Shown piece by piece: positions 3,375 to 9,523 of a stretch of DNA of 64,000 nt (positions within the stretch are counted from its first letter, which is position 1; each line of letters starts with the position of its first letter). The notes below the pieces were generated by a model, which worked only from the letters and a program-made list of their open reading frames with translations, made no database searches and was not told the DNA's origin. The stretch is from Candidatus Heimdallarchaeota archaeon (GTDB lineage Archaea > Asgardarchaeota > Heimdallarchaeia > JABLTI01): NCBI GenBank assembly GCA_018238155.1, contig JABCTZ010000046.1:128001-192000 (forward strand), given 5' to 3'. The position numbers were made by a program, and so were the translations under genes.

Positions 3375-4334
3375 GTGAGTTTCCTAAGAAGATTAATCAG
3401 TGCCGATAAAAAGAAAAGCGGTGAGGATATAAGCTCAAAACAACACGTAGCAATAATAGGACTAGACGCAGCAGGGAAAACAACAATAGTAAAAAGAATA
3501 CTGCGGTCAGAATATACGCTGTCAAAACCAACGTTTGGAGTAAATATCGAAGTTTACAGATATAGAACATTGGAATTCATCGTTTGGGATTTAGGTGGTC
3601 ACGCCCCGATTCGCAAGACTCTTTGGAAGAAGTTTGTTACAAAAGCTCAGACTATTGTTTTTGTTGTTGATGCTTCTGATCAGAAGAGATTTCAGTTAGC
3701 CAAAGATGTTTTCTATGAAACTTTAGAAAACACTGATCCCAAAGCTCCTGTTCTTTTCTTGGCTAATAAATCTGATAAAGAAGATGCTGCCTCTTCTGTT
3801 GAGGTTATGGAAGCTTTAGATCTTCAACAAATGATTCGTCTTGATCGTCCTTTTAACATGTTTCGTTGCTCTGCTCTTACTGGCGAAGGTTTATTTCCCG
3901 CCTGGGATTGGTTAGTTGATATTGGAGCCAAGGATCAAGCTATTCCCACTTGGCATGTCAAAATCTTTTCAGCAGTTGTTTTTGATTCAAATGGTAAAGA
4001 ATTGGATCAATGCATTTTTGGCAATCCTACTCAACAAGCAAATGTTGCCACAGCTTATCGTGAATCTATAAGAGAAACTGAACGCTTTGCTAAACAAATG
4101 CGTGATTATAACGAAGCAGTTACTGTTCTTGAGATAATGAAAAATTATCAACTAGTGATTACTAAGAATAAGCTCTTTGTAATGGGTGTATTAATTGATG
4201 TCAATGACCCCGTTAGTAGAGTTTTAACAATTTCTAGCAGAATTTTCGAAGCAATTGAGATGGAATATCTTAAAGGTTTAAGTATTTCACTTCAAGAAGT
4301 TATCTCTAATTATTTTCCATTAGACTCTATTTAG
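3375..4334 (+). CDS. Arf-family small GTPase fused to a C-terminal longin/roadblock-like domain
   Basis: G1 GLDAAGKTT, G2 PTFG, G3 WDLGGH, G4 NKSD, G5 CSAL. N-terminal amphipathic MSFLRRLIS. C-terminal domain starts IFSAVVFDSNG. Confidence 0.88.
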   Translation: MSFLRRLISADKKKSGEDISSKQHVAIIGLDAAGKTTIVKRILRSEYTLSKPTFGVNIEVYRYRTLEFIVWDLGGHAPIRKTLWKKFVTKAQTIVFVVDASDQKRFQLAKDVFYETLENTDPKAPVLFLANKSDKEDAASSVEVMEALDLQQMIRLDRPFNMFRCSALTGEGLFPAWDWLVDIGAKDQAIPTWHVKIFSAVVFDSNGKELDQCIFGNPTQQANVATAYRESIRETERFAKQMRDYNEAVTVLEIMKNYQLVITKNKLFVMGVLIDVNDPVSRVLTISSRIFEAIEMEYLKGLSISLQEVISNYFPLDSI

Positions 4335-4483
4335 AGTCTTTTTTCATTTATCTCTTCTTCAAAATCTTTATTTTGTGTTATTGATAATATATACCGATAA
4401 GCATTTATTTGGTACTACAATTCATCAATATGAGAGCACTTTTTGTTTATTGAAAAATCAAGGATGAGAATGGACGTAGTAAT

Positions 4484-5449
4484 ATGAAGGCATCAAAAAA
4501 AGCGATTGAATCATTTGCAAAATACTTGAGCAAGGATAATCATAAAGTTCCTTGGGTGCTTCTTATTGGTGAGAAAGGTTCTGGAAAAACAACTGCACTT
4601 TATTATCTCCTTTCTTCAAACAGAGACAAAATCTTTCCTGACACAGTCCTTAATTGGATTGATATTTCTTATGGTCAAGAGTGGTTTAAGCTCATCGATA
4701 TTGGAAATGAGATTTTAAACGATGAGAGTGTAATTGATTATTTTCTTTCAATTGCAGATGGCATTGTCTACGTTTTGAATGGAGAATCCGATGAGTCTCT
4801 TAGAAAATCTGTTGAACCCTTCCATGCTATTGTGGAGAAGATACCTTCTAATGTTCCCTTACTAACATTAGTGAACAAAAAAAGCCCTGAAAATAAAGTT
4901 AATCTTAGCCGAGTTTTAAGTTATTTTAATTTAGCTAAAATTTCTTCTCCAACGGACCCTCGTTCCTTTCATTTCGAAATTTGCACTATTTTGACTGGAG
5001 AAGGCATTTATCGTGGATTTGATTGGTTTATTTCAAAACTAATGCACTACGAAGGTTATCATGAGTATGTCACTATCCACCGTGTGTTAATTTATGATGT
5101 TAATGGCTTACTTGACTTTGATGCCCAGTTCTCAAATATCATGGATGATACGCAAGATGCTGTTCTTATAACAGGTTTGCTTTCTGCATTAAATTCAATG
5201 ACCAGGACACTCTTCAAAGATTCAAGTTTCTTGGATGTTGTAACTGTAGGTGATTATTCTATGGTTCTTGTTTCTCGCAATCAAAAGATCTGTTGCCTTT
5301 TTGTTGAACGAGGTGGAGCTATTGGTAAAGCAAAACAAATTGCTGAAATGATATTAGATATTTTCCTCATTGAGGGCGAGGAAGGAAGACTTGCTATTGA
5401 GAACCTTATTGATGAAAGTAAAAATAGTGATGAAACAATATCCGTTTGA
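4484..5449 (+). CDS. Degenerate Arf-like GTPase fused to a C-terminal longin/roadblock-like domain
   Basis: G1 GEKGSGKTT intact; G3 DIGN and G4 NKKS degenerate; CTILTGEG matches the paralog's CSALTGEG. C-terminal IHRVLIYDVNG...LITGLLSALNSM is longin-like. Confidence 0.8.
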   Translation: MKASKKAIESFAKYLSKDNHKVPWVLLIGEKGSGKTTALYYLLSSNRDKIFPDTVLNWIDISYGQEWFKLIDIGNEILNDESVIDYFLSIADGIVYVLNGESDESLRKSVEPFHAIVEKIPSNVPLLTLVNKKSPENKVNLSRVLSYFNLAKISSPTDPRSFHFEICTILTGEGIYRGFDWFISKLMHYEGYHEYVTIHRVLIYDVNGLLDFDAQFSNIMDDTQDAVLITGLLSALNSMTRTLFKDSSFLDVVTVGDYSMVLVSRNQKICCLFVERGGAIGKAKQIAEMILDIFLIEGEEGRLAIENLIDESKNSDETISV

Positions 5450-5542
5450 GGAATTTTTATTAAGGACGAGTTATGTTTTAATTAAACTAGAAAGCAAGAG
5501 AAAGAAGATTAGAAACTAATAATTAATGGAAGAAGATTTGAT

Positions 5543-6346
5543 ATGGTAGGAATTGAATCACAGAAGGAGCATTTACTTGGGATTGTTTTTGTGACATTTG
5601 AAGATACAGGTCCAGCTGTCCCGTATAATGATACTCCACTTACTGATGAACAGACACTCACATTAGCAGTAGAAGGTATGACAATTGTAGGTCTTGATGA
5701 AGGTTCTTCAGGAAAGACTATGGAAGAAAAGAAAAACCAAATGTTTGATACTATGGATGATAAAAAGTCATTTGGTCCTCTCCCAGTTCCGGGCGAACCA
5801 ACTTTTCGAGCAATGGCAATTACCTTTGATGTTGAAGCAGAGGCTTCATCAGACAATAGAATTCAAGAATTCGGAAGAAAATGCATTCTCTTCTTACTCT
5901 TTAAGGAAGACTATACTCGAGAGATTCTTGATGCTTATGGACTTATTAAACCCTATTTCTCAGTAATTGTACGAGATATCACTTCTGAAAAAGATTTAAC
6001 ATTCGCGAACCTCCAAGAGCTTTCAAAGAAAATGGGTATGCTCTTTTCTGGAAAACTTCCACGAATCTTCACCCTCTTAGAAGATGGCTCACCTAAAGAA
6101 TTAATTGGTAAAAAGATACCTGCTGGCGACGTTTTCTTAGTTGCTGATAAAAATAAATGTACTCTTTCCATTCTCTTCTATCACCCTGACCCTACTGTTT
6201 GGCGGAGAAGGCAAATATACAAAAGTGCTTCAGAGCTGAACTCGAGTGTTTTTAGAAATAAACTTAAAGTTATTTCAGTAACTGAAATTGCAGAAATGTC
6301 AAAAATACTTGATAGATTAAATGTTTCAATAGAAAAGATCCACTAA
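5543..6346 (+). CDS. Longin/uDENN-like domain fused to a C-terminal gelsolin-like domain
   Basis: N-terminal GIVFVTFEDTGP...FGPLPVP...CILFLLF. C-terminal IPAGDVFLVADK...LSILFY...YKSASELN...KVISVTE resembles a gelsolin repeat (LnsgDvFilD...ifvW...A..l...i..v.E). Confidence 0.6.
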   Translation: MVGIESQKEHLLGIVFVTFEDTGPAVPYNDTPLTDEQTLTLAVEGMTIVGLDEGSSGKTMEEKKNQMFDTMDDKKSFGPLPVPGEPTFRAMAITFDVEAEASSDNRIQEFGRKCILFLLFKEDYTREILDAYGLIKPYFSVIVRDITSEKDLTFANLQELSKKMGMLFSGKLPRIFTLLEDGSPKELIGKKIPAGDVFLVADKNKCTLSILFYHPDPTVWRRRQIYKSASELNSSVFRNKLKVISVTEIAEMSKILDRLNVSIEKIH

Positions 6347-6511
6347 GTTTTTTTAGCCGATTTTTTCTTCTCTTTCTCTTTTATTGTTTTTTTACCTAAA
6401 CTTTTTTATTTATGATAAAAATGAAATGCTTGAACGAATAGCTTTATATTTTAATAAATTACATTAAAAAACATTATAATTTAAACTTGGTGGAAATCTG
6501 GTGGAAGATTA

Positions 6512-7033
6512 TTGAGCAAAATAATAGCTAAAGTTGTTTTTGGTGGAGACGGAGGAGTTGGAAAAACAACTCTCATTCAGAGATACCTTACTGGAGAATT
6601 CATTGATACAACGAAGCTAACCATTGGTGTAGGTTTTCATATTCACCAAATGAGCTATCAAGAAAGAGATATTTCACTTTCTGTTTGGGATTGCGGTGGG
6701 CAAGAACAATTCAAACAAATGGGCATTTTCGATAATTACTTTCGAGGAGCACTTGTAGCTATCTTAATGTTTGATTTAACAAGAGCACTTTCTGTTAAAG
6801 GATTAGATACATGGTATGATTTTGTTGATAAAAATTCTAAGACATCCATTATTCTTGTTGGTGGTAAAAGTGATCTTCCAAGAGATCCACTTCTAGATGA
6901 AGATGTAATTGCAGAAACAATAAAACAGTATGAAGCCATTCGTTATGTTGAGACTTCTGCATCAAATGGTTTAGGAGTAAACCTCGTTTTCAATGAAATC
7001 GCTCGTTTATCATTGGATAAAATTCCAAAATAG
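6512..7033 (+). CDS. Rab-like small GTPase
   Basis: GDGGVGKT, TIGVGF, WDCGGQEQF, GGKSD, ETSA. No C-terminal prenylation Cys. Confidence 0.92.
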   Translation: MSKIIAKVVFGGDGGVGKTTLIQRYLTGEFIDTTKLTIGVGFHIHQMSYQERDISLSVWDCGGQEQFKQMGIFDNYFRGALVAILMFDLTRALSVKGLDTWYDFVDKNSKTSIILVGGKSDLPRDPLLDEDVIAETIKQYEAIRYVETSASNGLGVNLVFNEIARLSLDKIPK

Positions 7034-7600: not shown

Positions 7601-9523
7601 TTAATATTTCAGATTCTTACTATCTTCTTTATAGTAATACATTTTCAGAGAGAAGTTTATTATAACGCTAATGATTTTAATAATTCCAATACCCCAAAAA
7701 CAAGCAATAATAAAGGCAGTGATACCCGCTATCCAACTTGCACCTGCTTCTTGAGATAGAGCCAATAAACCAATACAGACATTATTGCTTACATGAATAA
7801 ATATTGCCGATTCTATACCATATTTTACAAATGCATAGCTTAGAATTAAACCTGCTACTCCTGCTTGAAAGATTTTCCATGCACCCCAGCTTCCTGTCCA
7901 TTTCTCCCAATGTGCAAATCCAAATAAGGTTGATGAAATAATTATTAGTGTCCATTCTGGATAACTAATTTTTTTATATTTACCCCTAATTGCAAGTGGA
8001 ATATCCCATATTTTGATTTTGGCAGGAAAGCTTTTCTCAGTTTTCGTTAATACTTCCATCCGATCATCAGCTATTCGTGATTTAGGTTCTAAATTCTTAT
8101 TTTGTTGCATTAAATATCTGATTAGCATAATGAAGATCATTGGTATTCCAATAATAAATATACGGAAGCTTATTTCCTCTGAAATACCTGCCCAAGCCAA
8201 TAAGAGTACACTAATGAAAGGATTGATAGGTTCTCCTGATGCTGGAGTTCCATTATCTCCGCCGATAAATGGTGATAAAATAAAAATGATAATTACTGAT
8301 AGAACAAAGGAAAGCCCAAGTAGTTCTACAGAACCAACTACTGGATTATTTTTTAGAATATAGAATAAGCTATTTAATTGTCCTTTTCTCTTTTCAAACA
8401 CAGATAATTTAACACCTGATTCTTCAGGAAAATTTTTCTCTTGTTCTAATTCTATATCTATCGATTTTTCACTTGAATGAACATCAGGAGTTACTTCATC
8501 TGAAATTTTTCTCTTCTTTTGAAATTTCTTATATAATCTTATTGATGTTGGTAAAACCATTGATACAACACAAAGTAAAAATACTGTAGTAATAATAGAC
8601 ATCAACGCAACTATTTTGAAATCGACTATTGGTATTTTTATCATAACAAATAGCCAAAATGGTATTGAACCATTAATACGTGTAGAGGGATTATAAAAAA
8701 TCCATGAACCAATACTGAGTACGATTAATACTGCTAAAATAGACGAAAACCCAACGAATAGATATCTCAAAGTATAATAAAACCCTTTCCAAGCATTTCC
8801 TTCAGGTCGATATTTTATTAGCGATATACCTATAATAAATGTACCAATAATCGATGGGATAAATATTGCAATCAAGAACCCATAATAACTGGCTTTACTC
8901 TCGCTTGGTACCACATCATCAACACTCGCTACAATCATAAATAGAATCAAGCTTATAAATCCAGAAAAAATCAAAAGAGCTCCAATAACAGTTCCTATTG
9001 TGTTATATGTTTGATATTTTGATAATCTCTTTTGTTCTTGGAGTTTTTGGAAATTCACAGGAGGTGGTGCTACATAGTATCTTTGTGAATCAACAATCGG
9101 ATGTCCACTCGCAGGCAGAGATATAGAGGTATTACCTGATGTCTGTTGAATTCTTGGGATGTTTTGTTTCAAAACCCCACCACATTTTGAACAAAAGGAA
9201 TTATAAACAGGCATTTCAGCATTACATTGTTGACAAAAAACCTTCTGAACGAAAGGGGCACCACAGCTTTTGCAAAAAAGATTTGATTTAGGGTTTTCCT
9301 CTCCACAACTTGAACAAGTAATTTTTGGTGGTTTATCATTTTCTGTTTGAATCTCATCTTGAGATTTCTCTTGTACCTCTTCTTCCGTGTTCTCGTCCCC
9401 TAAAATTCCTTCATTATTTTGTTCCTTATCATTAGACACAAATGTACACTCCCAATTTTTGGATAACTCATTATTTAAAGATACAATAATCTCATTGGTA
9501 AACCATATATTAAACCATTTCAT
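7601..9523 (-). CDS. Double zinc-ribbon plus CPBP (Abi/CAAX protease) family intramembrane metalloprotease
   Basis: Four CxxC pairs at the N-terminus, multiple TMs, EEISFR, FGFAH, HVSNN. Likely start GTG 9439. Confidence 0.85.
   Translation of the reverse strand: MKWFNIWFTNEIIVSLNNELSKNWECTFVSNDKEQNNEGILGDENTEEEVQEKSQDEIQTENDKPPKITCSSCGEENPKSNLFCKSCGAPFVQKVFCQQCNAEMPVYNSFCSKCGGVLKQNIPRIQQTSGNTSISLPASGHPIVDSQRYYVAPPPVNFQKLQEQKRLSKYQTYNTIGTVIGALLIFSGFISLILFMIVASVDDVVPSESKASYYGFLIAIFIPSIIGTFIIGISLIKYRPEGNAWKGFYYTLRYLFVGFSSILAVLIVLSIGSWIFYNPSTRINGSIPFWLFVMIKIPIVDFKIVALMSIITTVFLLCVVSMVLPTSIRLYKKFQKKRKISDEVTPDVHSSEKSIDIELEQEKNFPEESGVKLSVFEKRKGQLNSLFYILKNNPVVGSVELLGLSFVLSVIIIFILSPFIGGDNGTPASGEPINPFISVLLLAWAGISEEISFRIFIIGIPMIFIMLIRYLMQQNKNLEPKSRIADDRMEVLTKTEKSFPAKIKIWDIPLAIRGKYKKISYPEWTLIIISSTLFGFAHWEKWTGSWGAWKIFQAGVAGLILSYAFVKYGIESAIFIHVSNNVCIGLLALSQEAGASWIAGITAFIIACFWGIGIIKIISVIINFSLKMYYYKEDSKNLKY

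Follow-up and report, generated by a model that had tools for sequence, protein, structure and literature searches.

Three adjacent genes encoding an Arf-family GTPase, a pseudo-GTPase paralogue of it and a longin-gelsolin protein are kept in the same order in two families of Heimdallarchaeia. They are described here from a stretch of DNA of 64,000 nucleotides (the window) of a Candidatus Heimdallarchaeota archaeon (assembly GCA_018238155.1, contig JABCTZ010000046.1), which corresponds to C7:128001-192000 of a 4.08-Mb metagenome-assembled genome (MAG) with a GC content of ~32%. Domain identities and conserved motifs, the paralogy of genes 1 and 2, synteny and a single fusion protein found in nature lead us to infer, with slightly more belief than doubt, that these genes constitute a conserved module, in which the products of genes 1 and 2 would dimerise as a Rag-like pair of an active and a pseudo Arf-type GTPase, and gene 3 would be a longin-type GTPase-activating protein (GAP) with gene 1 as its client. 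The original prediction placed four co-oriented genes at positions 3375-7033 with no metabolic gene between them, and four open reading frames (ORFs) of one orientation (+) were indeed located at exactly these coordinates, with no intervening gene in the ORF list of the window. The features of the locus, in window coordinates, are the following:

3375..4334, +, gene 1 (P0001, 319 aa), Arf-family GTPase with a C-terminal domain of predicted longin order
3435-3926, +, G domain of gene 1 (residues ~21-184)
3600-3602, +, His76 of WDLGGH, at the catalytic position of gene 1
3963-4313, +, C-terminal domain of gene 1 (residues 197-313)
4484..5449, +, gene 2 (P0002, 321 aa), paralogue of gene 1 that reads as a pseudo-GTPase, the C-terminal domains of both being homologous
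5543..6346, +, gene 3 (P0003, 267 aa), putative GAP-type longin domain fused to a gelsolin-type domain
5573-6046, +, longin domain of gene 3 (residues 11-168)
5609-5614, +, GP motif of gene 3 (G23-P24)
5858-5860, +, R106 of gene 3, candidate finger arginine
5876-5878, +, R112 of gene 3, candidate finger arginine
6056-6322, +, gelsolin-type domain of gene 3 (residues 172-260)
6347..6511, +, spacer between genes 3 and 4, read as four T6-T7 runs followed by TATA-like boxes
6512..7033, +, gene 4 (P0004, 173 aa), Rab-like small GTPase without C-terminal cysteine, a family-specific neighbour

Conservation of the cluster and a natural fusion

Longin-gelsolin relatives were found in 79 of the 83 species genomes of the class that were searched, and in two families relatives of gene 2 adjoin the longin-gelsolin genes; 44 public loci were annotated with domain hidden Markov models built for this analysis. 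The window's family (including the JABLTI01 MAG) contributed 11 loci with cluster spacers of about 95-160 nt, in which the order gene 1-gene 2-gene 3-Rab-like gene was kept wherever there was enough flank (9/9), the remaining two being cut upstream and showing gene 3 followed by the Rab-like gene. The second family (including Heimdallarchaeota AB_125) presents genes 1-3 in order in 18 of its 22 loci, with gaps of -10 to +12 nt, and therefore as an operon; its other four loci are truncated where their contigs end and agree with this order. None of the cluster loci of either family contradicts the succession of genes 1, 2 and 3, even though between-family identity of the proteins is ~38% for gene 1, 30% for gene 2 and 40% for gene 3. 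The arrangement is not due to chance, since it recurs in every sufficiently long locus of the two families. In a maximum-likelihood tree the cluster-linked longin-gelsolin proteins of both families group together (84/76), inside a 100/99 clade shared with a lone paralogue. Synteny across Heimdallarchaeia, which the original prediction had named as a check, is thus a property of genes 1-3 in two families and extends to the Rab-like gene in the window's family alone.

A protein of 597 aa encoded in an NCBI MAG, P0099 (L070 4001-5794), joins in one chain a longin domain (residues 5-148), a gelsolin domain (173-265) and a G domain (285-473) that matches Pfam Gtr1_RagA at 4.6e-34 and is followed by ~140 residues. 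Its counterpart of the GP motif described below reads GT, and the D-x-R...G-R loop is kept. This fusion ties the architecture of gene 3 to that of gene 1 independently of the cluster.

The Arf-family GTPase and its pseudo-GTPase paralogue

Gene 1 matches Pfam Arf (PF00025) at 6e-43 over residues 21-182, above the curated cut-off, and continues for ~135 residues beyond the match. Among solved proteins it is nearest in sequence to Arl1 (5e-30), Arf1 and HodArfR1 from an Asgard archaeon (2e-27), and its G domain is nearest to Arf/Arl/ArfR structures; PF04670 (Gtr1_RagA) was absent among the Pfam matches of both gene 1 and gene 2 at E-values up to 1. The orthologue alignment revealed intact P-loop, switch-I Thr, NKxD and SA motifs and a near-invariant WDLGGH, in which the catalytic Gln of Arf proteins (WDxGGQ) is replaced by His, a state that we take to be that of Sar1 and SR-beta. 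Arf proteins bind membranes through an amphipathic helix at the N-terminus; in gene 1, residues 2-12 were modelled as a helix, but with a predicted local distance difference test score (pLDDT) of ~40; the hydrophobic moment of this segment (SFLRRLISADK) is 0.57, and that of the second-family orthologue 0.34.

Two further proteins of this kind are encoded in the same genome. A full-length paralogue of gene 1 (C15:87215-88150, -; 49-50% identical) stands alone beside an ABC transporter and carries Q, not H, at the catalytic position (DLGGQ). A third gene 1-type paralogue, with an Arf domain and the C-terminal domain (30% identity to gene 1), lies on contig C39 directly downstream of a 321-aa ORF (L002 5692-6657, +); a second GTPase pair at this site was considered and rejected, the upstream ORF being an unrelated Pro-rich, low-complexity protein with no family matches.

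Gene 2 matches Pfam Arf at 6e-15 and likewise extends ~135 residues further. Its alignment to gene 1 with hhalign covered the G domains (99.9%) and the C-terminal domains (95.7%, E 1e-8), and by this profile comparison the two genes are full-length paralogues. Across gene 2 orthologues the P-loop GxxxSGK[ST] and N131-K132 of NKxD are invariant. The DxxG position, on the other hand, reads DIGN in the window, DIGN, DLGQ or DLGK across its family and LEADEE in the second family. Judged by these motifs, gene 2 is a pseudo-GTPase that has kept the fold and lost DxxG. It probably still holds guanine nucleotide, because the P-loop and the NK motif are kept, but would be unable to switch or hydrolyse, DxxG being lost.

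In the model of the whole gene 1 the elements of the C-terminal domain follow the longin order, as given by Levine 2013 (PMC3747258). Sequence searches with this domain were blank: the profile of genes 1 and 2 returned chance-level rows alone from PDB sequences, and Pfam gave nothing at or below 0.01 on 18 C-terminal domains save a chance-level, single-member POL2_thumb match (0.0028), with Intu_longin_2 appearing weakly (0.11) in 2 of the 18. Neighbours by language model hinted at Robl_LC7 and MAPKK1_Int, at low scores (0.81-0.84), GTPases took up the match lists when the complete model of gene 1 was searched by fold, and hhalign found the C-terminal domains of genes 1 and 2 unrelated to either the longin or the gelsolin domain of gene 3. 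Because the sequence searches were blank, we keep the assignment at superfamily level: the domain is, as far as the evidence goes, a longin-order member of the longin/roadblock superfamily.

Downstream of the longin-gelsolin gene in a single genus of another family lies a gene for a protein of ~200 aa (L014 5051-5644, L015 7565-8182 and L016 5738-6340) whose N-terminal 50 residues are weakly like the C-terminal domain of gene 2 (E ~1e-4). These proteins may be free-standing dimerisation-domain proteins.

Fold and conserved motifs of gene 3

No Pfam or NCBIfam match was obtained for gene 3 and 25 relatives. Its AlphaFold2 (AF2) model, built from 26 diverse sequences (pLDDT 80.9), consists of two domains, a longin domain and a gelsolin-type domain, the latter being related to gelsolin in both fold and sequence. 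After a Loki longin, the top structural matches are Lst4, C9orf72, NPRL2 and FLCN, all of them longins of GAP complexes; Foldseek and the ESM Atlas agreed on this neighbourhood (SEA complex, C9orf72-SMCR8, GATOR1, NPRL3), the nearest Atlas shapes being C9orf72, a Heimdall cluster in which 23% of members have Pfam Folliculin, and NPRL3. The domain calls made from the DNA letters in the original prediction are borne out for the members of the core: an Arf domain with a C-terminal domain of predicted longin order in gene 1 (Pfam Arf and element order in the model), a degenerate Arf-like paralogue in gene 2 (hhalign paralogy and the missing DxxG) and a 'longin/uDENN-gelsolin' protein in gene 3 (AF2 model, Foldseek and ESM Atlas).

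A search of 1.84 billion representatives yielded 80 relatives of gene 3, of which 48, at 19-34% identity, were used for motif counts. Three motifs stand out, all of them in the longin domain: D-x-G-P-x4-N at the turn into strand 2 (G23 in 48/48 homologues and P24 in 47/48, the two opening strand 24-29 of the AF2 model), G-P-x-P-V-P at strand 3, and S-x-D-x-R-x4-G-R in the loop before strand 5 (D104, R106 and G111 each in 47 and R112 in 45 of the 48). According to PMC12290439 (2025), a GP motif adjoins the arginine finger specifically in the GAP longins SMCR8, C9orf72, FLCN and NPRL2, is absent from other longins such as adaptins, TRAPP and DENND proteins, and is found together with an arginine finger in Heimdallarchaeial longins, for which the authors ask whether ArfR or Rag-like GTPases are the clients. 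Gene 3 fits this class by its motifs, with R106 and R112 as candidate finger arginines.

The genome of the window also encodes three proteins with Pfam Folliculin matches above the cut-off (C7:65441-66721(-), C8:72694-73398(-) and C6:75733-76917(+)). They carry GP...N and 'ARGG.R', which marks them as true longins of the FLCN type and sets them apart from gene 3; a possible DENN-like C-terminal part is present in two, of ~390-430 aa. The longin profile of gene 3 has the GP...N and G-R elements in common with these proteins. Another member of the gene 3 family, P0074 (345 aa), is a longin domain fused to a V4R (TRAPPC3-like) domain, in which the D-x-R loop motif is lost (IWLPPKKRVYRK).

The Rab-like gene and the spacers of the window

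Gene 4 was predicted as Rab-like, and is: it matches Pfam Ras at 2.5e-35 (121.9 bits), and its top PDB matches are exclusively Rabs (Rab11 at 1.8e-23, Rab6, Rab7 and Sec4). The protein ends in ...SLDKIPK and has no prenylation Cys motif; a C-terminal Cys is likewise missing in GTPases of strain MK-D1 (Tran 2024, PMC10933270). The Rab-like gene lies downstream in 11/11 loci of the window's family and in 0/22 loci of the second, where the 18 complete loci have no Rab-like gene within 5 kb.

T5-T7 runs open every spacer of the window cluster, those after genes 1 and 2 lying at 4339 and 5454. In the spacer between genes 3 and 4 the T-runs are followed by TATA-like boxes, which makes it plausible that gene 4 is separated by termination and has a start of its own; a promoter belonging to gene 4 is therefore probable from the sequence. 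Gene 4 is thus a lineage-specific neighbour, probably transcribed separately, and would fall outside the core of the module. The self-contained four-gene Arf-to-Rab cascade of the original prediction is not supported: the Rab-like gene is confined to the window's family, a T-run-rich spacer with TATA-like boxes precedes it, and the tight operon of the second family lacks it.

The gene upstream of gene 1 is an unrelated 285-aa ORF with no family matches, and downstream of gene 4 a HycI hydrogenase-maturation protease is encoded in convergent orientation. Two genes past the Rab-like gene, at 7601-9523 (-), lies a gene for a double zinc-ribbon plus Rce1-like CAAX-protease-family membrane protein. 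A link of this protein to gene 4 is unlikely because the Rab-like protein has no CAAX box.

Proposed module and alternative explanations

We propose that gene 1 would act as a functional Arf-family switch, with all G motifs and a Sar1-type His at the position of the catalytic Gln of Arf, and would pair with gene 2 through the homologous C-terminal longin-order domains to give a Rag-like active/inactive heterodimer. Gene 3 would be the GAP of gene 1 and donate an arginine to complement its His, while its gelsolin domain might touch the G domain at a further site, in the manner of Sec23-Sar1, or provide a link to actin; gene 4 would have no part in this three-protein module. The corresponding proposal of the original prediction, in which Arf-scaffold GTPases form a Rag-like pair and the longin-gelsolin protein is a regulator or effector, gains from the synteny in two families and from the P0099 fusion, its heterodimer and complex staying at the level of prediction. 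A complex prediction of genes 1, 2 and 3 with GTP scored 0.64 and partner-swap controls 0.00, but an unrelated protein in place of chain 2 still gave 0.64, and these models were used neither for nor against binding.

Several observations weigh against the proposal. The window spacers measure 94-165 nt and are rich in T-runs; therefore, co-transcription of genes 1-3 in the window itself is uncertain. A second longin-gelsolin paralogue (43-46% identity; 11 loci in the window's family) stands alone, and in four other families of the class the longin-gelsolin genes are not beside such GTPases. The only ground for calling the C-terminal domain of gene 1 longin rather than roadblock is the element order of the model. 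Gene 3 has no match to Pfam Folliculin (PF11704), a model that matches three other loci of the genome, and Pfam NPR2 (PF06218) matches nothing in the whole-genome search, gene 3 included. In the profile alignment the Arg of the FLCN-type 'ARGG' is offset by ~3 residues from R106 of gene 3, so that R106 and R112 are no more than candidates for a finger in gene 3, if it has one. Moreover, the eukaryotic longins with GAP function are heterodimers with a second longin subunit and have DENN or other C-terminal domains, not gelsolin.

Longin and roadblock proteins mostly serve as guanine nucleotide exchange factors (GEFs) or platforms, not as GAPs, as exemplified by DENN, Mon1-Ccz1, TRAPP and Ragulator. 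Gene 3 could accordingly act on the GTPase pair as a GEF, or serve it passively as a platform or effector, with the conserved loop residues devoted to binding or exchange. We regard this as unlikely, though it is the best placed of the alternatives: the GP motif that is missing from non-GAP longins (PMC12290439) is invariant here together with the loop arginines, and the top structural matches of gene 3 that follow the Loki longin are to longins of GAP complexes.

Alternatively, gene 3 could be chiefly an actin regulator, whose gelsolin domain would cap or sever Asgard actin and whose longin domain would recruit it to the GTP-bound Arf-like protein, thereby coupling a membrane switch to the cytoskeleton. 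This appears rather improbable. The strongest conservation of the protein is in the longin motifs, the gelsolin part being near-invariant at E186 and N233 only, and Pfam Gelsolin misses gene 3 yet detects the true 2DGel gene of the genome; actin binding by gene 3 is putative.

The gelsolin part of gene 3 has no family-conserved Arg in its last 25 residues, where the match to Sec23 ends (R254 varies between R, Q, I, K and E), and the conserved arginines are in the longin domain; the finger of Sec23 (R722) presumably lies near the end of that match. These features leave very little room for a Sec23-style mechanism in which the gelsolin domain, not the longin domain, would give the catalytic residue to the His-type, Sar1-like GTPase, even though the gelsolin domain of Sec23 does supply such a residue and Asgard Sec23-like proteins have no gelsolin domain (PMC11914678).

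That the genes are mere neighbours kept by descent, with no physical or functional coupling, would agree with the T-runs of the window spacers, with the paralogues of genes 1 and 3 that stand alone elsewhere in the genome and with the general lack of operons joining GTPase and longin/roadblock genes in MK-D1 (Tran 2024, PMC10933270), but is hard to credit given an order kept across two families at 30-40% identity, with genes abutting or overlapping in one of them, and the natural fusion of both architectures in P0099.

Relation to known systems

Tran et al. 2024 (PMC10933270) described an operonic Rag-like GTPase-roadblock/longin pair of Promethearchaeum syntrophicum MK-D1 and modelled it as a Gtr1/Gtr2-like dimer. 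Compared with this pair and with the solved LokiRagM (9m28) and LokiRagO (8yl2), the cluster reported here has a pseudo-GTPase without DxxG as one partner and G domains nearest to Arf/ArfR, not to Rag; compared with the MK-D1 pair, it also has a third conserved gene, the longin-gelsolin gene, in the unit. The likeness to Gtr1-Gtr2 and RagA/B-RagC/D consists in two paralogous GTPases, each with a C-terminal domain, which in Rags belongs to the longin/roadblock superfamily and holds the obligate heterodimer together and for which the same is predicted in genes 1 and 2; Rags are regulated by longin GAPs. However, both Rags are active, with roadblock-order domains and a Gtr1_RagA-type G domain, whereas genes 1 and 2 are of Arf type and predicted longin order, and one of them is dead.

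With FLCN-FNIP, GATOR1 (NPRL2-NPRL3), C9orf72-SMCR8 and the Heimdallarchaeial FLCN/SMCR8-type longins (PMC12290439), gene 3 shares the longin fold, the strand-2 GP motif and one or more arginines before strand 5; the clients of the eukaryotic complexes are Rag or Arf GTPases. Unlike the eukaryotic longin GAPs, gene 3 matches neither Folliculin nor NPR2, ends in a gelsolin-type domain instead of a DENN or winged-helix domain, and has no second longin-only gene beside it in the window ORFs and flanks. It also differs by ~3 residues in arginine register from the FLCN-type 'ARGG' proteins of its own genome, and a GAP role is predicted for it. From the known Asgard gelsolins (ProGel, 2DGel) the gelsolin-type domain of gene 3 differs in sitting behind a longin domain and in escaping the Pfam Gelsolin model.

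Sar1-Sec23 offers a further point of comparison: gene 1 shares with Sar1 a His in place of the catalytic Gln (DLGGH), and the GAP Sec23 has a gelsolin-like domain, as has gene 3; gene 3, in contrast, lacks the trunk, barrel and zinc-finger of Sec23 as well as a conserved Arg in its gelsolin part. It is tempting to speculate, tentatively and with more reserve than for the module itself, that the three proteins represent a pre-eukaryotic switch merging the logic of Rag-FLCN/GATOR1 (a dimer silenced by a longin finger) with that of Sar1-Sec23 (a His-type Arf GTPase and a gelsolin-bearing GAP). If so, a small GTPase of Asgard archaea would for the first time be identified as the client of a particular GAP, the longin-gelsolin protein, which could also be a possible source of the gelsolin module still missing from Asgard Sec23-like proteins.

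As regards novelty, GTPase-longin/roadblock fusions and one operonic pair of them (PMC10933270), GP-motif longins (PMC12290439) and Asgard ArfRs are already published. In the searched open-access papers and bioRxiv we found no account of the conserved linkage of the three genes, of a pseudo-GTPase as partner or of a longin domain fused to gelsolin. Hence, the novelty claim of the original prediction has to be trimmed: within the searched literature it would hold for the linkage and the gelsolin fusion, and not for Rag-like operonic pairs or GP-motif longins as such.

The origin of eukaryotic membrane-traffic switches is an open question on which this module bears. Asgard small GTPases have so far been hard to match to their regulators because the genes are usually scattered (Tran 2024). 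The cluster and P0099 together point to one particular candidate client, namely an Arf-type GTPase that has a Sar1-like His and a dead paralogue as predicted partner, and the cluster nominates residues to mutate; therefore, the client question of the 2025 paper becomes directly testable with three small soluble proteins.

The only Sec23_trunk-like ORF of the genome (E 4.6e-9, 525-aa frame) is on another contig than gene 3. Directly upstream of it, in the region C13:94650-96283, a frame of 359 aa matches Pfam Folliculin weakly (E 0.2), and small GTPase genes lie nearby (C13:86310-86798 and C13:90789-91256). This region may be a second neighbourhood of longin, coat-like and GTPase genes.

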